This document shows, one piece after another, positions 37,846 through 64,000 of a DNA stretch of 64,000 nucleotides; the first letter of the stretch is position 1, and every line of letters starts with the position of its first letter. The translations under genes were made by a program, and so were the position numbers. Source of the stretch: Acidobacteriota bacterium (GTDB lineage: Bacteria > Acidobacteriota > Terriglobia > 20CM-2-55-15); contig JAJEEE010000057.1 in the NCBI GenBank assembly GCA_022821145.1, positions 4,213 through 68,212 of the forward strand, read 5' to 3'. The notes beneath the pieces were generated by a model. The model had not been told where the DNA came from. It was given only the letters and a program-made list of their open reading frames with translations, and ran no database searches.

Positions 37846-40338
37846 ATGACGATCGCACGTTGGATCGCGGCATGCGCCGCCCTCGGAGGGTGGGCGCCTC
37901 TGTCCGCGGGCGCCCAGGACACTCTGGACGGCGTGTCCCCCCACGCCGCCCTGTTGGATGCCTACTGCCTCGGTTGCCATTCCACGGAACGGTTCGAACG
38001 GGGCGACGCGCCCATCGCGCTGGACACGCTCGATCCGGCCGATGTCGCGCGCGACGCCGAGGCGTGGGAAACCGTCGTCCGCAAAGTGCGCACGGGACAG
38101 ATGCCGCCTTCCGGAGCGCGGCGTCCGGACGGGACCGCCCGGGACGGCTTCGTCCGATATGTCGAGAGCGCGCTCGATCGGGCCGCGGCCGCCGCACCGG
38201 ACCCGGGCCGGACCGAGGCGCTGCACCGGCTGAACCGGGCCGAGTACCGGAACGCGATCCGCGACCTGCTGGACCTGGACGTCGACCCTTCGGCATGGCT
38301 TCCGTCCGACGACGCGAGTTACGGTTTCGACAATATCGCCGGGGTCCTCGGCATGTCGCCCACCTTGATGGAGCGCTACCTGAACGCGGCCCGGGAGATC
38401 AGCCGGGTGGCCGTGGGAACGCCGCCGTCCTTTCCCGCCATCGACTACTACCGCGTGGCGGACGACCTGTCGCAGGACGCGCACCTCACGGGCCTGTCGT
38501 TGGGCACGCGCGGCGGAGCGAAGATTCGATACACGTTCCCCATGGACGCCGAGTACACCATCCGGGTGGAGCTGACGCGCGACCTGAACGAGTCGCTGCC
38601 CTACTATCCGGAACCCCAGCACCTGGAGATCAGCATCGACGGCGAGCGCGTGCACGTGTTCGCGATCGAGCCCAATCCCGCGCCGCCGCCCGAGCCGGCG
38701 TCCGCCGAGGCCTCGGCCCAGGGGCAGGAGCCGCAGATCAGCCAGGTCGCCCGCCGCGGGCCGCGGCTCACCCGCGAGGAACGCGCGGCGCACAACCGCG
38801 TCGACCGCGAATGGGAAATCCGGATCCCGGTCCAGGCCGGCGCGCGCGACGTGCAGGCCGCGTTCGTCCGGCTGACGTCGGCCGTCGCCGAGACCGCGCG
38901 CCTCCCATTCTTCCGGCCGTACCCGGGAGGCGTCAACATCCCCGAGTCGCGGCTGGGCAACTATCTGCGCGGCGTCGAGATCAGCGGTCCCTACGATCCG
39001 ACCGGCCCGGGCGACACGGCGTCCCGGCGGCGGATCTTCGCGTGCCGTCCGGGCCCCGGCGCCACGCCGGACGAGGAAGCCGCCTGCGCCGGGCGGATCC
39101 TGGGAACGCTGGCGCGGCGCGCCTACCGCCGGCCGGTCACCGGGCGGGACCTGGAACCCCTCCTCGAGTTCTTCCGGCGGGGACGCGCCGAGGGCGGCTT
39201 CGACGACGGGATCGAGCGCGGCCTCGGCCGTCTGCTCGTCAGCCCGGAGTTCCTGTTCCGCGTGACGGCCGACCCGCCGGGGGCCGCGCCGGGCGAGGTG
39301 TACGCCATCGACGACGTCGAGCTGGCGTCGCGGCTGTCGTTCTTCCTCTGGAGCAGCATTCCCGACAACGCGCTCCTGGAGCTGGCCGAAGCCGGCCGCC
39401 TCTCCGAGCCGGACGTACTGGAAGCCGAGGTCCGGCGCATGATCCGGGACGAACGGTTCGACGCGTTCGTCGAGAACTTCGCCGGCCAGTGGCTCTTCCT
39501 GCGCAACCTGGAAGCGACGGTCCCGGTGCAATACCGCTTCCCCGACTTCGACGACGCGCTCCGGCAGGCGTTCCGGCGCGAGACCGAACTGTTCTTCGAG
39601 AGCGTGGCCCGGGAGGACCGGAGCGCACGCGACCTGCTTCGCGCCGACTACACGTTCCTGAACGAGCGGCTGGCCGTCCACTACGGCATTCCCAACGTCA
39701 AGGGAAGCCACTTCCGGCGGGTGACGCTGGACGCTGGCGGGGGCCGCTCCGGCCTGCTGGGCCACGGCAGCGTCCTGACGGTCACCTCCTACCCGGACCG
39801 GACCTCGCCCGTGGTCCGCGGCAAGTGGATCCTGGAGAACCTGTTCGGGTCGCCGCCGCCGGATCCGCCGGCGATGGTCCCGGAGTTGGAACCGTCCGAC
39901 ACGTCGGGAGACGTGCTCTCGATGCGGGAACGGATCGCCCAGCACCGCGCGAATCCGGTGTGCGCAAGCTGCCACGCGACGATGGACCCGCTGGGCCTGG
40001 CGCTGGAGAACTTCGACGCCGTCGGCCGGTGGCGTACGCTCGAAGAATCGGGCGCCGCCATCGACGCGACCGGCGCGCTTCCGGACGGGACACGGTTCGA
40101 AGGCGCCGAGGGACTCCGGCAGGCCCTGCTCTCCTCGGACCTGTTCGTCGTGACGCTGACCGAGAAGATGCTGACCTACGCCCTGGGACGGGGGCTGGAG
40201 TACCATGACGGGCCCGCCGTCCGCGAGATCGTGAGGGACGCCGCCGGCGGCGGCTACCGGATGCAGTCGCTGATCGCGGGCATCGTCCGGAGCGTGCCGT
40301 TCCGGATGCGGACGGCGGGACCGGCAGCCGCGGAATGA
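37846..40338 (+). CDS. Exported DUF1587/1595/1592/1588/1585 (PSD/PSCyt) diheme protein, system 1
   Basis: Signal peptide; CLGCH plus MPP; RLNRAEY, GFDN, LASRLSFFLWSSIPD, TSPVVRGKWIL, CASCH, TYALGR. TATAAT at 37757-62 upstream. Confidence 0.92.
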   Translation: MTIARWIAACAALGGWAPLSAGAQDTLDGVSPHAALLDAYCLGCHSTERFERGDAPIALDTLDPADVARDAEAWETVVRKVRTGQMPPSGARRPDGTARDGFVRYVESALDRAAAAAPDPGRTEALHRLNRAEYRNAIRDLLDLDVDPSAWLPSDDASYGFDNIAGVLGMSPTLMERYLNAAREISRVAVGTPPSFPAIDYYRVADDLSQDAHLTGLSLGTRGGAKIRYTFPMDAEYTIRVELTRDLNESLPYYPEPQHLEISIDGERVHVFAIEPNPAPPPEPASAEASAQGQEPQISQVARRGPRLTREERAAHNRVDREWEIRIPVQAGARDVQAAFVRLTSAVAETARLPFFRPYPGGVNIPESRLGNYLRGVEISGPYDPTGPGDTASRRRIFACRPGPGATPDEEAACAGRILGTLARRAYRRPVTGRDLEPLLEFFRRGRAEGGFDDGIERGLGRLLVSPEFLFRVTADPPGAAPGEVYAIDDVELASRLSFFLWSSIPDNALLELAEAGRLSEPDVLEAEVRRMIRDERFDAFVENFAGQWLFLRNLEATVPVQYRFPDFDDALRQAFRRETELFFESVAREDRSARDLLRADYTFLNERLAVHYGIPNVKGSHFRRVTLDAGGGRSGLLGHGSVLTVTSYPDRTSPVVRGKWILENLFGSPPPDPPAMVPELEPSDTSGDVLSMRERIAQHRANPVCASCHATMDPLGLALENFDAVGRWRTLEESGAAIDATGALPDGTRFEGAEGLRQALLSSDLFVVTLTEKMLTYALGRGLEYHDGPAVREIVRDAAGGGYRMQSLIAGIVRSVPFRMRTAGPAAAE

Positions 40339-40357
40339 AGGAGGCGCGCCTCGAAAC

Positions 40358-41701
40358 ATGTTCATCACGAATAAAACGCTGAACCGCCGCGCGGTGCTCC
40401 GCGGCGCCGGGGCCGCCGTGGCGCTCCCCCTGCTCGACGCCATGGCGCCGGCCTTCGGAGCGGCCCGCCAATCGCCGGACACCGGCGCCCGCCGCATCGG
40501 CTTCGTCTACATGCCGAACGGAGTGTCCAAGAACTTCGCGGGCATCGACTACTGGACACCCGCCGGGGAAGGCGCCGGCTTCGAGCTCTCGCCGATCCTC
40601 GAGCCGCTGGGACCGTTCCGCGAGCGCCTGCACGTCATCAGCGGCCTGGCCCAGCACCAGGCCGACGCGCACGACGACGGCGCCAACGGCGACCATACCC
40701 GGGGAACGAGCAGTTGGCTGACCGGCGTTCACCCCAAGCGCACCGAAGGCGCCGACATCCGCAACGGCACGTCGGCCGACCAGATCGCCGCGGCGCGGCT
40801 CGGGGCCGAAACGCCCCTGCCCTCGATCGAGCTGGCGATCGACCTCAACTTCCTGGCCGGCCAGTGCGAGAACAGCTACAGTTGCGCCTACCTGAACACG
40901 CTGGCGTGGACCTCGCCCACCACGCCGCTGCCGACGGAGAACAACCCGCGCATCGTCTTCGAACGCCTGTTCGGCGACGGCGGCACGCCCGAGCAGCGCG
41001 CCCGGCAGGCGCGCCGGGACGGGAGCCTGCTCGACTCGGTCCTCGAGGACCTCGACCGGCTTGGCCGGAGGCTGGGGCCGGGCGACGCCGGCCGCGTCGG
41101 CGAGTACCTGGACTCCGTGCGGGAGGTGGAGCGCAGAATCGAACGGTCGGGCGGCCGGGCCGACGCCCCGCTGCCGGCCCTGGACCGCCCGCGAGGCATC
41201 CCCGATCAGTTCGGAGACCACGTCCGTCTGATGTACGCCCTCCAGCGGCTCGCCTTTCAGGCCGACCTGACCCGCGTGGTCACCTTCATGCTGGGACGCG
41301 AGCTGAACTTCCGCGTCTACCCGGAGATCGGCATCACCGAGGGGCACCATGGCCTGTCGCACCACGGCGACCGGCCCGAGCAACTCGAGAAGTACTCGCG
41401 ACTGGGCGCCTACCAGGCGACGTTGTTCGGCGAGTTCCTCCAGTCGCTGGACGACACCCCGGAAGGGGACGGGACGCTGCTGGACCACTCCCTGTTCCTC
41501 TACGGCGCCGGGCTGAGCAACCCGAACGTGCACGCCCACTACGACCTGCCGCTGGCCGTCATCGGGGGAACGGGCGCGCTGGAGGGAGGCCGGCACGTCG
41601 TTCTGCGGGAGGAGACGCCCATGACCAACCTGCTGCTCACGATGCTGGACCAGGTGGGCGTGCATGCCGAATTCCTCGGCGACAGCACCGGCCGGTTGTA
41701 G
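40358..41701 (+). CDS. DUF1552 (HXXSHH) Tat-exported protein, system 1
   Basis: LNRRAVLRG twin-arginine motif; CENSYSC, ENNPRIVFERLFG, HHGLSHH. Confidence 0.92.
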   Translation: MFITNKTLNRRAVLRGAGAAVALPLLDAMAPAFGAARQSPDTGARRIGFVYMPNGVSKNFAGIDYWTPAGEGAGFELSPILEPLGPFRERLHVISGLAQHQADAHDDGANGDHTRGTSSWLTGVHPKRTEGADIRNGTSADQIAAARLGAETPLPSIELAIDLNFLAGQCENSYSCAYLNTLAWTSPTTPLPTENNPRIVFERLFGDGGTPEQRARQARRDGSLLDSVLEDLDRLGRRLGPGDAGRVGEYLDSVREVERRIERSGGRADAPLPALDRPRGIPDQFGDHVRLMYALQRLAFQADLTRVVTFMLGRELNFRVYPEIGITEGHHGLSHHGDRPEQLEKYSRLGAYQATLFGEFLQSLDDTPEGDGTLLDHSLFLYGAGLSNPNVHAHYDLPLAVIGGTGALEGGRHVVLREETPMTNLLLTMLDQVGVHAEFLGDSTGRL

Positions 41702-41702
41702 C

Positions 41703-43544
41703 GTGCGCCTTCGGATCGGAGTTCCCGCTCTCCTGTTGCCGATCGCTTTCGGCGCGGCCGCCGCCGCGCGCCAGGTCTCGCTCATCGACGCCGTACGATC
41801 GGCGGACCTCGACGCCGCGCAAGCCCTGCTCCAAGCCGGCGCCGACGCGAACGAGGCCGGCGCCGACCGGACGGCGGCGCTCCACTGGGCCGTCCTGAAC
41901 GACGACCCCGACATGACGGCCGCGCTCCTCGACGCCGGCGCCGATCCGCGGGCGGCGAACCGGCTCGGGGTCACCCCGATCCATCTGGCCGCAACGAACG
42001 GCAACGCCGCGATCGTTCGCCGGCTGCTCGCATCCGGCGTCGACGCGAACACGGCGTCGCCCGGGGGCGAGACCGCGCTGATGACCGCGGCGCGAACCGG
42101 CGTGGTCGAGGTCGTCGACGCGCTGCTGGAGGCTGGCGCCGACCCCAATGCGCGCGAGAGCTGGAGAGGCCAGACGGCGCTGATGTGGGCCGCCGCCGAG
42201 AACAATGCCGGCGCCGTCGAGGCCCTCGTTCGGGGCGGCGCGGCACTGGAAGCGACCTCCGACGGCGGCGAGATGACCCCCTTCCTGTTCGCCGTACGCG
42301 GGGGCCACGTCGACGCCGCGGGCGCGCTGCTCGCATCCGGCGCCGACGTCGACCAGACGCTTCCGGACGGCATGAGCGCGCTGGTCCTGGCGCTGTGGAA
42401 CGCCCACTACGAGATGGCCGGCTTCCTGCTCGACAACGGGGCCGACCCCAACGCCGACCTCCAGGGCTGGACCGCGCTGCACCAGATCGCCTGGTCCCGC
42501 AGGCCCAACGCGGGCTTCAACATGCCCGGCCCTCCCGCGACGGGCGACCTGGACAGCCTGGAACTGGTCCGCAGACTCGTTGACGCCGGCGCCGACGTCG
42601 ACCGCCGGGTGAGCGCGGAACCGCGGGACGGAAACCGGAACATGCTGAACCGGATCGGCTCCACGCCCTTCCTGATGGCGGCCAAGTCGGACGACGTCCC
42701 GCTGATGCGCGTCCTCCTGGAGATGGGCGCCGATCCGTCGATTCCCAACGAGGACGGCACGACGGCCTTGATGGTGGCGGCCGGAGTCGGGATCTGGGCG
42801 CCGGGCGAGAATCCCGGCACGCACAAGGAAGCGCTCGCCGCCGTGAGGCTCGCGCTGGAAGCCGGCGGCGGGCAGGTGACCGACATCGACGCCAACGGCG
42901 AGACCGCCGTGCACGGGGCGGTCTACCGCGGGGGCGCCGTCGACGTCATCCAGTTCCTCGCGGAGCGGGGCGCGCCGCTCGACGTCGTCAACGACAAGGG
43001 CTGGACGCCGCTGACCGCCGCCGAGGGCGTGGAGTACACGCCCGCCGTCCTGAAGCGGTACCCGGAAGCGGCAGCTCTGCTGCGCCGCCTGATGCGCGAT
43101 CGCGGCCTGGACGTGCCCGAGCCGGGCCCCGCCCTCAGCGTCGCCGTGACCAACCTGGAAGGCGCCCCGCCCCGCACCGACCGCGACGGCGTCTTCACCG
43201 GGGAGCAGGCCGCGCGGGGACTCCGTGTCTACGAACAGTCATGCGGGTCGTGCCACTACGCCAACCTCCGCGGGGACGCCGACGCCCCGCCGCTGGCCGG
43301 ACCGGAATTCGTCGAGCGATGGGCGGGCTCGAACGCGGGCAACATGGTCCGCGTCGTCAGCAACCAGATGCCGCCCGACGCGCCCAACAGCCTCGGCCGG
43401 CAGGCCTACGTCGACGTGGTCGCGTACCTGCTGGAAGCGAACGGCCGCCCGGCCGGGGACGAGGAGATGTCCCCCAACCCGCTGGTCCTGGAACGCATCG
43501 GGCTGACGGGGCCGGCCTCCGACGAACGACCATCGGACGACTGA
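41703..43544 (+). CDS. Exported ankyrin-repeat protein fused to a C-terminal cytochrome c domain
   Basis: Many G-x-T-A/P-L-x-x-A ankyrin repeats; C-terminal CGSCH...QMPP; GTG start inferred. Confidence 0.88.
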   Translation: MRLRIGVPALLLPIAFGAAAAARQVSLIDAVRSADLDAAQALLQAGADANEAGADRTAALHWAVLNDDPDMTAALLDAGADPRAANRLGVTPIHLAATNGNAAIVRRLLASGVDANTASPGGETALMTAARTGVVEVVDALLEAGADPNARESWRGQTALMWAAAENNAGAVEALVRGGAALEATSDGGEMTPFLFAVRGGHVDAAGALLASGADVDQTLPDGMSALVLALWNAHYEMAGFLLDNGADPNADLQGWTALHQIAWSRRPNAGFNMPGPPATGDLDSLELVRRLVDAGADVDRRVSAEPRDGNRNMLNRIGSTPFLMAAKSDDVPLMRVLLEMGADPSIPNEDGTTALMVAAGVGIWAPGENPGTHKEALAAVRLALEAGGGQVTDIDANGETAVHGAVYRGGAVDVIQFLAERGAPLDVVNDKGWTPLTAAEGVEYTPAVLKRYPEAAALLRRLMRDRGLDVPEPGPALSVAVTNLEGAPPRTDRDGVFTGEQAARGLRVYEQSCGSCHYANLRGDADAPPLAGPEFVERWAGSNAGNMVRVVSNQMPPDAPNSLGRQAYVDVVAYLLEANGRPAGDEEMSPNPLVLERIGLTGPASDERPSDD

Positions 43545-59240: not shown

Positions 59241-60797
59241 ATGCGGATTCCACAGCTCGCTCTGCCGTTTTTCGTCGCGACCGTCGCGACGGGCGCCGCG
59301 TTCGGAGCCCAGGACACACACCCCCTGATCGAAGCGTCGGAGAACGGCGACCTCCCGAGGGTCCGCACGCTGCTGGCCGAGGGCGCCGACCCCGACGCCC
59401 GGCGCATCGACGGCACGACGAGTCTCCATTGGGCCGTCCACTCCGATCACGCCGAAACGGCCGTGCTTCTGCTCGAGGCCGGCGCCGACGCGCGGGCCGG
59501 GGACCGTTACGGGATCACGCCGCTGCACCTGGCCGCCGTCAACGGCAACGCGGCGCTGATCGCACGTCTGCTCGAGGCCGGCGCGGACGCCAACGCCGTG
59601 GCGCCCACGGGAGACACCGCGCTGATGACGGCGACGCGCACGGGCCAACCGGACGCCGTCAGCGTGCTGCTCGAGGCCGGCGCCCGCGTCGACGCGCGCG
59701 ACGCGGAGTTCCAACAGACCGCGTTGATGCTGGCGGTGCGCGAGAACCACCCCCGCGTAGCGGAGATGCTGATCGCGAGCGGCGCCGACGTCGACGCTCG
59801 GACGCGCGTGGGGGCGACGCCCGAGTTCCAGCCGCCGTGCAAGGGCACCGGGTGCGGCTCCGAGGGCGTGGGCATCAACCGCGGCGGGTTGCCCGACCGG
59901 GGACGGCGCGCCGAGACCCGGGGCGGCATGACGCCGCTGCTCTACGCGGCGCGCGAGGGGCGGATCGAGGCCGCGCGGCTCTTGATCGCGGCGGGCGCCG
60001 ACGTGGAGCGGGCCGAGGCCAACGGCATCCGGCCCCTGCTGATGTCCGTCCTCAACAACCGGCTCGACGTCGCGCGCCTGCTCCTGGACAGCGGCGTGGA
60101 CCTCAACGCCGACGACTTCTGGGGCCGCCGGCCGCTTTGGGCCGCCGTGGAGTACCGCAACCTGGACATGAACAACCGCGACCAGGACAGCCCCACCCAC
60201 AACGGCGTCGACCGGGCGCCGATCCTGGAGTTCATCCGCGTCCTGCTCGACGGCGGGGCCGATCCGAACGCGCGGACGCGGGAAGTGCCGCCGTCCCGGC
60301 GTTGGCTCTACTCGCTGGGCGACGTCTCCTGGGTGGACTTCACCGGCCAGACGCCGTTCCTTCGGGCCGCACTGTCGGGGGACACGGTCGCGATGCGGCT
60401 GCTGCTGGAATACGGCGCCGATCCGAATCTGCCGACATTCGCCGGCACGACGCCGCTGATGGCCGCCTCCGGGGTCAACTGGGTCGTCGCCCAGACCTAC
60501 ACGGAATCCGGCGCGGCGGTGATCGAAGCGGTCCGGCTGTGCCTGGAGCTCGGCGCGGACGTCAACGCCACGAACTCGATGGGCCTGTCGGCGCTGCTGG
60601 GGGCCGCCAACCGGGGCTCCAACGACATCATTCGCATCCTGGTCGACAACGGCGCACACCTGGACGTGGTGGACCGGGAGGGGCGGACGGCCATCCGGTG
60701 GGCGGAAGGCGTCTTCCTGGCCGCGGTCGGCGCGGAGCGCAAACCCCAGACGATCGCGCTGCTCGAGGAGTTGATGGCCGCGACGGCGGCGCCCTGA
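59241..60797 (+). CDS. Exported ankyrin-repeat protein, system 2
   Basis: Signal peptide; repeated GxTxLHxA/GxTPLxxA motifs; paralog of the ankyrin part of 41703..43544. Confidence 0.9.
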   Translation: MRIPQLALPFFVATVATGAAFGAQDTHPLIEASENGDLPRVRTLLAEGADPDARRIDGTTSLHWAVHSDHAETAVLLLEAGADARAGDRYGITPLHLAAVNGNAALIARLLEAGADANAVAPTGDTALMTATRTGQPDAVSVLLEAGARVDARDAEFQQTALMLAVRENHPRVAEMLIASGADVDARTRVGATPEFQPPCKGTGCGSEGVGINRGGLPDRGRRAETRGGMTPLLYAAREGRIEAARLLIAAGADVERAEANGIRPLLMSVLNNRLDVARLLLDSGVDLNADDFWGRRPLWAAVEYRNLDMNNRDQDSPTHNGVDRAPILEFIRVLLDGGADPNARTREVPPSRRWLYSLGDVSWVDFTGQTPFLRAALSGDTVAMRLLLEYGADPNLPTFAGTTPLMAASGVNWVVAQTYTESGAAVIEAVRLCLELGADVNATNSMGLSALLGAANRGSNDIIRILVDNGAHLDVVDREGRTAIRWAEGVFLAAVGAERKPQTIALLEELMAATAAP

Positions 60798-60801
60798 GTT
60801 C

Positions 60802-63084
60802 ATGATCTACGCGTTGTCCAGCTTCCTGGTCCCGGCTCTCGCGCTCGGCGCGGCCCAGGAAGGGGGGAGACTCGAGCCGGGGGAGCTGCTGGAGGCGTAT
60901 TGCGTCACCTGCCATAACGCGGCGCTCCTCGCGGGCGAACTCGACCTGAACGCGCTCGATCCGGACCGCGTGGGCGACGACGCGGAGACGTGGGAACGCG
61001 TGGTGCGGAAGCTGCGGACGGGCCTGATGCCGCCGGCCGGCGCCCGACGGCCCGACCGCGCGGCGTTGGACGCATTCGCCGCGGGCCTGGAGGACGCGCT
61101 CGATCGCGCCGCGTCGCTCCGGCCCAACCCCGGGGCGCCGGTGCTGCACCGCCTCAACCGGGCCGAGTACGCCAACGCCGTGCGGGATCTTCTGGACCTG
61201 CCGGTCGACGCGGCGGCGCTTCTGCCCGCCGACGATTCCAGCAACGGCTTCGACAACGTCGCCGCCGCCCTGAACGTGTCCCCGGCCCTGATGCAGGCCT
61301 ATGTCGCGGCGGCGGGCAAGATCAGCCGGATGGCCGTGGGCGACGCGACCATCAGCCCGGCGCGCACGACGTACCGCCCCGCCCGCGGCCTCTCGCAGGA
61401 CAACCACATCGAGGGTCTGGGCCTGGGAACGCGCGGCGGCATGGCCGTCGACCACGTGTTTCCGCTCGACGCCGAGTACGTCTTCGATATCGGCCGGTCC
61501 GGCGGCGGGTTCGGCCAAGCCACGACGGGCGGCTCCGAAGCGGTCGAGATCGCCATCGACGGCGAGCGCGTCGCGCTGGCCGCCCCGGACGGGCTTCGGG
61601 GCATCCGGCTGCGCGTAGAGGCGGGTCCGCGCCGGGTCACCGCGGCCGTCGTCTCGACGAGAAGCGCCGTGGGCGTCGACGACCTTTACTCCCGGCTGGC
61701 GGTCAGCCCCGGCGTCGCCAACGTCTCGATCTTCGGACCCTTCGACCCGACGGGTCCCGGCGACACGCCGAGCCGCCGGCGCATATTCTCGTGCCGGCCG
61801 GCGGCGGAAGCCGGGGAACGCGCCTGCGCGATGGAGATCCTGGGCGCGCTGGCCCGACGCGCGTTCCGGCGGGCCGTCGACGACGCGGATCCCAAGATGG
61901 AGACGCTGATGGGGTTCTTCGAGTCCGGGCGCGAGCTCCGCGGATTCGAGACCGGAATCCAATACGGGGTGGCGCGCATCCTGGTCGATCCCGAGTTCGT
62001 CTTCCGGTTCGAAGACGAACCGTCGGCACTGGCCGACGGCCGCGTCTACGAGCTGGACGGCCTGGAACTGGCCACGCGGCTCTCGTTCTTTCTCTGGAGC
62101 AGCATCCCGGACGCGAGGCTTCTCGACGCCGCCGCCGCGGGGCGGCTCTCGGATCCCGAGGCGCTGGAAGCCGAAGCGCGGCGCATGCTGGCCGATCGGC
62201 GCGCCGGCGCGCTGGTCGAGAACTTCGCCAGCCAGTGGCTGCTGCTCCGGCAACTGGATACGGTGGCGCCCGCGTCCAACGACTTCGACGGCAACCTGCG
62301 CCGCTCGTTCCGCCGCGAGACCGAGATGCTCTTCGAGAGCATCCTGCGGGAAGACCGCAGCATCATGGACCTGATCGACGCCGACTACACGTTCATCGAC
62401 GAACGCCTGGCGCGGCACTACGGCGTCCCGAACGTCCGCGGAAGCCGGTTTCGGCGCGTCAGCGTCGAGGACGAGCACCGCCGGGGCCTGCTGGGGCACG
62501 GCAGCGTCCTTACGGTCACCTCGGCCGTCAACCGGACGTCGCCGGTCAAGCGCGGTCACTGGATCCTGGAGAACCTGCTCGGCGCGACGGTGCCGCTGCC
62601 GCCGCCCGGAGTGGAATCGAATCTGGACGAGAGCGCGGACGCGGGGCCGGCGCCAGCCTCCATGCGCCGGCGCCTGGAACGCCATCGAGCGGACCCGGCG
62701 TGCGCAAGCTGCCACGCCATCATGGACCCGATCGGTTTCGCGCTGGAAAACTTTGACTCCGTCGGCAAATGGCGCGATGCTGACGGTGGCGCCCCGATCG
62801 ACGCGAGCGGCGAGATGGCCGACGGAACGGCGATCGACGGGCCGGCGAGCCTGCGGCGCGCGCTCATGGATCGGAGGGACGCGTTCGCGGCCGTCGCCGT
62901 CGAGAAGCTCCTGACCTACGCGCTGGGACGCACGGTGGATCACGACGACATGCCCGCCGTGCGGTCCATCGTCCGGGGAGCGGCCTCCGACGACTACCGC
63001 CTCTCGTCGCTGGTGCTGGGCGTGGTCGCAAGCGACGCGTTTCGATCGAAGATCAAGGTGTCCGACGAGGCTCGGGATCGATAG
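60802..63084 (+). CDS. Exported DUF1587/1595/1592/1588/1585 diheme protein, system 2
   Basis: CVTCH plus MPP, RLNRAEY, GFDN, LATRLSFFLWSSIPD, TSPVKRGHWIL, CASCH, TYALGR. Confidence 0.92.
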   Translation: MIYALSSFLVPALALGAAQEGGRLEPGELLEAYCVTCHNAALLAGELDLNALDPDRVGDDAETWERVVRKLRTGLMPPAGARRPDRAALDAFAAGLEDALDRAASLRPNPGAPVLHRLNRAEYANAVRDLLDLPVDAAALLPADDSSNGFDNVAAALNVSPALMQAYVAAAGKISRMAVGDATISPARTTYRPARGLSQDNHIEGLGLGTRGGMAVDHVFPLDAEYVFDIGRSGGGFGQATTGGSEAVEIAIDGERVALAAPDGLRGIRLRVEAGPRRVTAAVVSTRSAVGVDDLYSRLAVSPGVANVSIFGPFDPTGPGDTPSRRRIFSCRPAAEAGERACAMEILGALARRAFRRAVDDADPKMETLMGFFESGRELRGFETGIQYGVARILVDPEFVFRFEDEPSALADGRVYELDGLELATRLSFFLWSSIPDARLLDAAAAGRLSDPEALEAEARRMLADRRAGALVENFASQWLLLRQLDTVAPASNDFDGNLRRSFRRETEMLFESILREDRSIMDLIDADYTFIDERLARHYGVPNVRGSRFRRVSVEDEHRRGLLGHGSVLTVTSAVNRTSPVKRGHWILENLLGATVPLPPPGVESNLDESADAGPAPASMRRRLERHRADPACASCHAIMDPIGFALENFDSVGKWRDADGGAPIDASGEMADGTAIDGPASLRRALMDRRDAFAAVAVEKLLTYALGRTVDHDDMPAVRSIVRGAASDDYRLSSLVLGVVASDAFRSKIKVSDEARDR

Positions 63085-63095
63085 AGGAGACGACG

Positions 63096-64000
63096 ATGTT
63101 CATCACCCGGAAACACCTTTCCCGCCGCACGTTCCTCCGCGGCACGGGCGCGGTCGTGGCGCTGCCGTTCCTGGAATCCATGGTCCCGGCGCAGACGCCG
63201 CTGGCCCGGACGGCGGCCAGTCCGCGAACCCGGCTGGGGTGCATCTACATTCCTCACGGCGCGACCATGGACAAGTGGACACCCCTGGGCGAGGGCCGCG
63301 ACTTCGCGTTCTCGGAGATCCTCCAGCCGCTGGAACCATTCCGGGAACGCGTGTGCGTCGTCAGCGACCTGGCGCACGCGCAGGTCGCGCCCTGGGAAGG
63401 CGAGGACACCGGCGGCGCCGAGAACCACGTCCGGGCCGCGGCGGTCTTCCTGAGCGGCGCGCACCCGGTGAAGGGCGACACGGCCGTCGTCGGACCGTCC
63501 GTCGACCAGGTTGCCGCCGCCCACGCGGGGCAGGACACGCCGCTGCCGTCCATCGAGCTGTCGATCGAGGCCGTGGGCCTGAACTGCGATTCGGGTTTCA
63601 CCTGCGCCTACCGCAACACGCTGTCCTGGAAGTCCGAAACGCTCCCGCTGCCGATGGAGAACAACCCCCAGATCGTGTTCGAGCGGCTCTTCGGCGACGG
63701 CAGCACGGACGCGGAGCGCCGCGAACGGCGGCGGCTGTCCCAAAGCCTGCTCGATTCCGTCCGGACCAAGGCGGCGTCGCTGGGGCGCGACCTTCCCGCC
63801 CCCGACCGCGTCCGGCTCGATGAGTACCTGGAACAGGTCCGCGAGATCGAGCGCCGGGTGCTGCTGTTCGACGAGCGGCTCTCGACCGGCCTGGAGCTGC
63901 CGGAGGCCCCCGTCGGCGTGCCGAGCGATTTCGAGGAGCACCTGGACCTGATGTTCGACCTGCAGGTCCTGGCGTACCGAGCCGAGATCACGCGCATCTC
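63096..64000 (+). CDS. DUF1552 Tat-exported protein, system 2 (runs off the window end)
   Basis: MFITRKHLSRRTFLRG, CDSGFTC, ENNPQIVFERLFG; absent from the ORF track because no stop falls in the window. Confidence 0.9.
   Translation, partial: MFITRKHLSRRTFLRGTGAVVALPFLESMVPAQTPLARTAASPRTRLGCIYIPHGATMDKWTPLGEGRDFAFSEILQPLEPFRERVCVVSDLAHAQVAPWEGEDTGGAENHVRAAAVFLSGAHPVKGDTAVVGPSVDQVAAAHAGQDTPLPSIELSIEAVGLNCDSGFTCAYRNTLSWKSETLPLPMENNPQIVFERLFGDGSTDAERRERRRLSQSLLDSVRTKAASLGRDLPAPDRVRLDEYLEQVREIERRVLLFDERLSTGLELPEAPVGVPSDFEEHLDLMFDLQVLAYRAEITRI

Follow-up and report, generated by a model that had tools for sequence, protein, structure and literature searches.

A window of 64,000 nucleotides (nt) from the genome of an Acidobacteriota bacterium (assembly GCA_022821145.1; the window is the whole stretch of DNA analysed) ends in three closely packed genes, which encode an ankyrin-repeat protein, a two-haem protein of the DUF1592 type and a DUF1552 protein (locus B, Table 1). 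Locus B is a real, conserved three-gene variant of a known, uncharacterised gene pair, DUF1592-DUF1552. That the three genes form a conserved functional module is very likely. The best overall explanation, to which we assign a probability of about 0.7, is an exported three-gene module that serves as one periplasmic redox system with a cognate ankyrin adaptor. The spacing is tight, with 4 nt between the stop of the ankyrin gene and the start of DUF1592 and 11 nt between DUF1592 and DUF1552. The window holds 301 of the 444 amino acids (aa) of DUF1552; on the contig its stop was read at ~64430, ~430 nt past the window end. The Pfam-scanned ankyrin open reading frame has two candidate starts (59124/59241-60797, +). 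In an independent gene call on this metagenomic contig the ankyrin, DUF1592 and DUF1552 proteins have 518, 760 and 444 aa; a length of 518 aa places the ankyrin start at the ATG at 59241.

The source genome (4.18 Mb, 67% G+C, 99% complete; the window lies on its contig C63) holds 23 DUF1592 and 23 DUF1552 genes. All are paired (23/23); DUF1592 is the upstream gene and shares the strand of DUF1552. When the two ankyrins of the window were used as queries, 25 ankyrin-family open reading frames were recovered, 22 of them within 1 kb of a pair. A sequence-only reading of the window, which had seen in the three genes an obligate three-component system, had proposed a genome-wide count of paralogous loci; this count shows an ankyrin gene at 22 of the 23 pairs. 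For 25 such genes in 4.18 Mb, the probability of finding 22 of 23 pairs with an ankyrin within 1 kb by chance is P ~1e-27. Chance adjacency is ruled out by this value and by the conservation of the linkage across phyla. All 22 linked ankyrins group in a single clade (support 100/100) that excludes three orphan ankyrins. These three, which are not linked to a pair (C23:46071-47543, C86:16398-20697), form a clade of their own and are the only free-standing "eukaryote-like" ankyrin candidates in the genome.

Maximum-likelihood trees of the three families were pruned to the 22 loci with all three genes. The trees have 12-13 of 19 splits in common, compared to a maximum of 3 in 2000 label permutations, and patristic distances correlate between them with r = 0.76-0.81. 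Every strongly supported clade is found again in all three trees, namely (B, C18_45k), (C12, (C33_58k, C56)), ((C33_2k, C52), (C60, C18_56k)) and (C29, (C79, C11)). The congruence for which the sequence-only reading had called is thus present, and neither of the two observations it had named as contradicting it, incongruent trees and a majority of loci without an ankyrin gene, was made. Adjacency might also be a matter of gene-order inertia after recent segmental duplication, with no selection for the trio. Many copies per genome, some of them close together on the same contig (C33, C51), would agree with such an origin. However, paralogues of the module genes are only 34-61% identical, the gene order was reshuffled several times and yet the trio was retained, and the trio is conserved between phyla, which makes inertia hardly credible.

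Gene order was compared with a second locus of the same window, locus A (37846-43544). Gene identities from Pfam bear out the permutation that had been noticed from the sequence: the order is ankyrin-DUF1592-DUF1552 in locus B and DUF1592-DUF1552-ankyrin in locus A. The rearrangement that had been read from this difference is not a local event, since the whole orthologue group of locus B inherits the ankyrin-first order. Its closest relatives (L002-L005, labelled Acidobacteriota, Gammaproteobacteria and Terriglobia) all carry the three genes in this order, which is the ancestral state of the group. Because these four loci keep the trio in the same order at 54-79% identity, the module of locus B has been inherited as a unit and was probably also transferred as a unit. 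Among the 23 loci of the genome DUF1592-DUF1552-ankyrin is the commonest arrangement. The ankyrin gene comes first in five loci (B, C18_45k, C12, C33_58k and C56) and stands upstream in divergent orientation in three (C60, C18_56k and C70_20k). Its position hence varies around a fixed DUF1592-to-DUF1552 core. Gene order follows the clades of the trees, and the permutations are therefore few and old. Altogether, the three genes are duplicated together, diverge together and pass between phyla together, and each ankyrin-carrying pair keeps its own ankyrin.

The same linkage is found in other genomes. An ankyrin gene adjoins 23 of the 24 DUF1552 genes in a genome of the same genus (G003), 32 of 33 in G007, from the same family, and 3 of 3 in G006. 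G018, a genome from a different family of the class, has an ankyrin beside all five of its DUF1552 genes. Over 21 relative genomes the copy numbers of DUF1552 and of the ankyrin family correlate with r = 0.99, and those without DUF1552 have no member of the ankyrin family. A scan with a DUF1552 alignment, taking one genome per species, gave a set of named metagenome-assembled genomes (MAGs) with 80 named loci and 86 DUF1552 genes. The loci come from Bryobacterales, Vicinamibacterales, other Terriglobia, several gammaproteobacterial orders and one Acidimicrobiia MAG. An ankyrin lies within 3 kb of 79 of the 86 genes, in 56 cases downstream, in 14 upstream on the same strand and in 9 upstream and divergent. 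Five of the seven remaining genes are cut by contig ends, one is frameshifted with fragments of an ankyrin beside it, and one (L069) is a true exception. Since the named MAGs are biased towards relatives of locus B, an even draw of 120 Acidobacteriota genomes was analysed as well. Here DUF1552 was found in 22 other genomes, and 95 of the 115 listed genes have an ankyrin-family match within 6.5 kb. The ankyrin-free genes of this sample are mostly found in genomes with few copies.

Modules labelled Gammaproteobacteria (L003, L005, L012, L021, L035, L047 and others) are interleaved with acidobacterial modules in several well-supported DUF1552 clades. This pattern points to complete three-gene modules having crossed between phyla several times, or else to some mis-binned contigs. 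A first homologue search returned close relatives only; for DUF1552 of locus A the nearest homologues bear the label Vicinamibacterales. An annotated DUF1552-ankyrin fusion (P0110, L082:6001-9308, ENA contig_104642) was rejected as a likely long-read frameshift artefact, because the ankyrin gene and the neighbouring pyrroloquinoline quinone (PQQ) gene are both split on that contig.

The window sequence was found in four sponge-metagenome runs, all from one study. In sponge-associated Acidobacteriota of the class Luteitaleia, 0.55% of the genes encode ankyrin-repeat proteins, which was read as a sign of host interaction (Robbins et al. 2021, PMC8163846). The 25 family members found here amount to a similar share of genes by a rough estimate from gene density. 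They also have the Pfam repeat families and the host-associated type of genome in common with the eukaryote-like ankyrins of sponge symbionts (Nguyen et al. 2014; Robbins et al. 2021, PMC8163846). From this, and from the origin of the genome in sponge metagenomes, the ankyrins could be effectors that manipulate the sponge host, with their position beside the pairs being incidental. Against this stand the 22 of 25 members that sit in modules, the congruence of the ankyrin tree with those of the partners and the copy number that tracks DUF1552. Moreover, carriers of the same family with the same pair include soil, lake and other free-living Acidobacteriota and Gammaproteobacteria MAGs. Unlike host factors, the ankyrins of this family are tied to DUF1592-DUF1552 pairs, in free-living relatives just as here; manipulation of the host is therefore a very improbable role. 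For this symbiont, the data suggest that the "eukaryote-like" ankyrins are mostly partners of enzymes and not host effectors. This bears on ankyrin counts as evidence of host interaction (PMC8163846), since here 22 of 25 sit in predicted periplasmic modules that are common to free-living relatives.

The ankyrin protein of locus B begins with MRIPQLALPFFVATVATGAAFGAQ, which resembles a Sec signal peptide. It matches Ank_2 in six stretches, has about a dozen repeats and contains no cytochrome domain. Signal-peptide-like N-termini were recognized by eye in 21 of the 22 linked ankyrins, the trimmed C56 sequence being without its N-terminus; the ankyrins should therefore act in the periplasm. A cytochrome c domain as a general part of the ankyrin was considered and rejected, as such fusions occur in 1 of 22 linked ankyrins here (locus A) and in 1 of 81 elsewhere. 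Two cysteine motifs were observed in the family. The CKGTGC loop of locus B sits in a conserved GxGIxRGGxPxRG insertion between repeats, which is found also in orthologues labelled Acidobacteriota and Gammaproteobacteria. The loop itself is kept in the ankyrins of L002-L005, occurs as a variant in L014 and is absent from the nearest paralogue, C18_45k. A CxxC motif in one repeat helix (for example AAREGCLECAR) is confined to a clade of eight ankyrins (C73_22k, C51_218k, C33_31k, C33_48k, C29_35k, C79_91k, C11_12k and C66_7k), which is also a clade in the DUF1552 tree; loci A and B do not have it. The two cysteines might bind a metal or be redox-active.

In the DUF1592 protein of locus B the Pfam domains follow in the order PSCyt1, PSD3, PSD5, PSD4 (DUF1592), PSCyt3 and PSD2. 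Scores are 84 bits for PSD3, 47.9 for PSD5, 145.9 for PSD4, 116.4 for PSCyt3 and 77.2 for PSD2, with gathering cut-offs of 23-34. The haem motifs are indeed conserved: two CxxCH motifs are present in each protein (at aa 41 and 706 in locus A) and both occur in 23 of 23 paralogues. The central insert does differ between the two loci: it has 162 aa in locus B and 223 aa in locus A, within a range of 150-223 aa for the 23 paralogues. No other region is as poorly conserved among them (pairwise identity 0.34 on average, compared to 0.43-0.58 elsewhere). The AlphaFold model of the protein (predicted local distance difference test, pLDDT, 77) is mostly helical apart from the insert, which is modelled as an all-beta sandwich with strands at aa 187-318. 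A Foldseek search with the whole protein gave no fold match in the PDB at E<0.001. The sandwich gave weak Foldseek matches to carbohydrate-binding (CBM-like) and collagen-binding-like modules, and one relative has a weak Pfam CBM60 match at the position of the insert.

In the DUF1552 protein the twin-arginine (Tat) motif is conserved as described from the sequence (NRRAVLRG in locus A), and its RR pair is invariant in 23 of 23 paralogues. In locus B the motif is followed by a hydrophobic stretch, and the Pfam TAT_signal score is 22.6 bits for a cut-off of 22.7. The C-x5-C motif recurs in locus A as CENSYSC, but it is not universal in the family: C-x4-6-C is found in 19 of 23 paralogues, and both C-x5-C cysteines are invariant in 12 aligned paralogues. 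H325, H329 and H386 are invariant and S328 and H330 nearly so; HNASHH at aa 325-330 lies outside the window. A cysteine pair and several acidic residues are invariant as well. The DUF1552 protein models as an alkaline-phosphatase-superfamily (AP) fold, at moderate confidence (pLDDT 70). A Foldseek search of the PDB with the model gave 11 matches at E<=0.001, all of them to sulfatases, LtaS or members of the AP superfamily. YejM and phosphoethanolamine transferases are among them (probability 1.0, best E 8.7e-7, template modelling (TM) scores 0.34-0.46). The Pfam family Sulfatase (PF00884) had no match at E<=0.01 in DUF1552.

To see where the identity of each paralogue resides, locus B was compared with four orthologues (L002-L005) and with 22 paralogues. 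Orthologue identities span 61-73% (ankyrin), 54-63% (DUF1592) and 64-79% (DUF1552). For the ankyrin, identity is 0.65 to the orthologues and 0.38 to the paralogues, a ratio of 1.69; the corresponding figures are ~0.72, ~0.47 and ~1.5 for DUF1552 and 0.58, 0.48 and 1.21 for the whole DUF1592 protein. Within the latter the insert stands out (0.52, 0.36, ratio 1.44), while the remaining regions have ratios of 1.08-1.25. A high ratio of orthologue to paralogue identity is the pattern expected of parts that bear specificity. The claim that the insert sets substrate specificity thereby gains modest support, having the highest ratio within DUF1592; its values are compatible with that role and no more. 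The ankyrin and DUF1552 score higher. Specificity is at least as likely to lie in the ankyrin and in DUF1552 as in the insert, judging by these comparisons.

In the preferred reading the three proteins would form a single redox enzyme system of the periplasm, with DUF1552 as the catalytic metal subunit. The two-haem protein would exchange electrons with soluble cytochromes or with PQQ dehydrogenases encoded nearby. As a paralogue-specific adaptor or scaffold, the ankyrin would bind its own partner; jointly with DUF1552 and the beta-sandwich insert it would help to define the target of each of the 23 paralogues. The ankyrin may have been added to the pair, and then fixed, at the start of a large radiation, and would not be a universal requirement. 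The parts of this reading differ in strength. It is probable that the ankyrin is a specific physical partner; a redox enzyme with DUF1552 as its catalytic subunit is put forward tentatively. More speculatively, the ankyrin might be the paralogue-specific recognition subunit of an unrecognised periplasmic enzyme class, formed by an AP-fold metal protein and a two-haem protein, for the oxidative turnover of diverse organic substrates and present in dozens of copies in Acidobacteriota. If so, most ankyrins counted in sponge-associated Acidobacteriota of the Vicinamibacteria/Luteitaleia type would be enzyme subunits and not host-manipulation factors.

Several findings weigh against this reading, the first being that pairs without an ankyrin exist. 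In a DUF1552 tree of 127 sequences, ankyrin-free loci occupy deep divergent branches, one nested and well-supported subclade and a few singletons. The deep branches are second-type DUF1552 genes of genomes G014 and G019. The nested subclade comprises the one ankyrin-free locus of our genome (on C23) and loci of G019, G014 and Bryobacterales-type assemblies, and among called genes no ankyrin was found within 7 kb of its loci. In the phylum-wide Acidobacteriota sample ~17% of DUF1552 genes are without an ankyrin. The label of ankyrin presence needs at least 5 changes on the tree, most simply explained by a single gain at the root of the large radiation, a loss in one subfamily and sporadic further losses. 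The DUF1592-DUF1552 pair can therefore exist without the ankyrin, and the ankyrin-free subfamily and deep outgroups mean that the ankyrin is not needed for basic chemistry. DUF1592 features that track ankyrin loss are limited to one 6-column gap and six conservative changes, none of them usable for locating a docking site. As ankyrin-cytochrome c fusions are rare (2 of ~103), a link of the ankyrin to electron transfer rests on few cases. The fold assignment of DUF1552 is limited by a pLDDT of 70 and TM scores of ~0.4, and a conserved [CS]xPxR nucleophile motif was not found; the 23 paralogues contain three scattered, non-aligned matches, none of them in A or B. Finally, the runs that hold locus B include no RNA runs.

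These ankyrin-free loci also decide how much of the "obligate three-component system" can be retained. There is strong support for the three genes being maintained as a single functional unit, but "obligate" is too strong, given one conserved subfamily, the deep outgroups and the sampled share of genes without an ankyrin. The ankyrin is a fixed partner in most of the family and is not indispensable to the pair. The sole ankyrin-free pair of the genome (C23:66731-70470) has the longest DUF1592 branch in the paralogue tree (1.38, compared to a median of 0.44).

The main rival to a subunit is a dispensable, clade-specific helper, which would assist its own DUF1552 or DUF1592 protein in the periplasm in folding, stabilisation or insertion of haem or metal, or would protect it as an inhibitor, with the chemistry being done by the pair alone. 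Periplasmic ankyrins with helper or inhibitor roles have precedents in AnkB, which acts with the catalase KatB in Pseudomonas, and in Bd3460 of Bdellovibrio. The ankyrin-free pairs, which exist as a conserved subfamily and as deep outgroups, and the shifting of the ankyrin gene around a fixed pair fit a helper; the literature on Planctomycetes and Verrucomicrobia, to the extent of the text available, describes the pair only (PMC5615132). A general helper would, however, not need one diverged copy per paralogue, and the ankyrin is as long-lived as its partners and better conserved among orthologues (61-73%) than DUF1592. We regard the helper as unlikely, although "specific helper" and "subunit" are not separated by the present data.

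The module can be compared with several known systems. Genes for "Planctomycete-specific cytochrome c" (PSCyt) proteins were first noted in Rhodopirellula baltica and later in Verrucomicrobia (PMC5615132). According to that study, PSCyt3 genes adjoin an unknown family and nothing is known of their function (He et al. 2017, PMC5615132). The published pair of a PSCyt3/PSD protein (DUF1587-DUF1595-DUF1592-DUF1588-DUF1585) and DUF1552 agrees with ours in the architecture of the haem protein, in a DUF1552 gene directly downstream and in its multi-copy expansion. In contrast to the pair as described in the papers found, the pair is joined here, in most Acidobacteriota and several Gammaproteobacteria, by a dedicated ankyrin third member that diversifies with it. 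An ankyrin partner is not described in the portions available of the handful of papers that were found with the DUF names and PSCyt3. S1 sulfatases, LtaS, phosphoethanolamine transferases and YejM resemble DUF1552 in predicted fold, and they too are exported or periplasmic. DUF1552 differs from these AP-superfamily enzymes in having no sulfatase Pfam match and no C/SxPxR motif, and in possessing a His cluster (HxxSHH, H386), a Cys pair, a putative Tat signal and a haem-protein partner.

For the ankyrin itself the closest functional parallel is KatB-AnkB of Pseudomonas aeruginosa, where a periplasm-facing ankyrin stands beside a haem enzyme and is needed for its full activity. As in that system, an ankyrin with a predicted export signal lies in a putative operon with a haem protein and would act outside the cytoplasm. 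AnkB is small, has few repeats and occurs once per genome, with a catalase. The ankyrin here, in contrast, has ~520 aa and 22 diverged copies, and its partners are a two-haem protein and a protein of predicted phosphatase fold; Pfam detected no catalase domain in either neighbour of the locus B ankyrin.

With 23 copies in this genome and up to 34 or more in relatives, the DUF1592/PSCyt3-DUF1552 pair is among the largest unexplained gene expansions in Planctomycetes, Verrucomicrobia and Acidobacteriota. A near-constant cognate third partner offers a biochemical handle, through co-expression of the trio and pull-down, and is a likely site of paralogue specificity. As a marker, the ankyrin also allows ankyrin-dependent lineages of the family to be told apart from ankyrin-free ones.

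Table 1. Genes and motifs of locus B, with the genes of locus A for comparison (positions in the window).
Feature	Position	Strand	Details
Ankyrin-repeat protein, locus B	59241..60797	+	518 aa; Pfam Ank_2 212 bits; gene call
CKGTGC loop in ankyrin (aa 200-205)	59838..59855	+	within insertion between repeats
Two-haem PSCyt/PSD protein (DUF1592 type), locus B	60802..63084	+	760 aa, signal peptide; Pfam
Haem-binding motif 1, CVTCH (aa 34-38) of DUF1592 protein	60901..60915	+	
Variable central insert (aa 180-341) of DUF1592 protein	61339..61824	+	between PSD3 and PSD5
Haem-binding motif 2, CASCH (aa 634-638) of DUF1592 protein	62701..62715	+	inside PSCyt3
DUF1552 (HXXSHH) protein, locus B	63096..64000 (open end)	+	Pfam PF07586 226 bits, on the 301 aa inside the window
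Twin-arginine motif SRRTFLRG (aa 9-16) of DUF1552	63120..63143	+	
C-x5-C motif CDSGFTC (aa 164-170) of DUF1552	63585..63605	+	
DUF1592-type two-haem protein, locus A	37846..40338	+	830 aa; 53% identity to B
DUF1552, locus A	40358..41701	+	447 aa; 47% identity to B
Ankyrin with fused C-terminal class I cytochrome c (CGSCH), locus A	41664..43544	+	40% identity to B

Genes next to the modules were surveyed at ~100 loci. The recurrent neighbours are a ~290-aa family (28), outer-membrane barrels of the CarboxypepD_reg type (19), PQQ dehydrogenases (17), metallo-beta-lactamase-fold proteins (13) and stand-alone cytochromes c (5). By its gene content the neighbourhood is a predicted periplasmic oxidative setting, though no neighbour is constant. 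The ~290-aa exported family, the commonest neighbour, has no Pfam match and often occurs in tandem copies (for example L069:4444-5322). Directly after the DUF1552 gene of locus B, beyond the window at ~64481-65560 (+), lies a gene for a peptidyl-prolyl isomerase (rotamase) with tetratricopeptide repeats. It is not conserved at other loci, and its product could be a periplasmic folding helper. In one paralogue clade (C29:36.9-37.9 kb, C79:92.8-93.8 kb and C11:14.0-15.0 kb) DUF1552 and the ankyrin are separated by a gene for a metallo-beta-lactamase-fold protein with a Tat signal and an HYHADQTG motif. Given its recurrence as a neighbour at ~13 of the ~100 loci, it may be an optional fourth component of the module.

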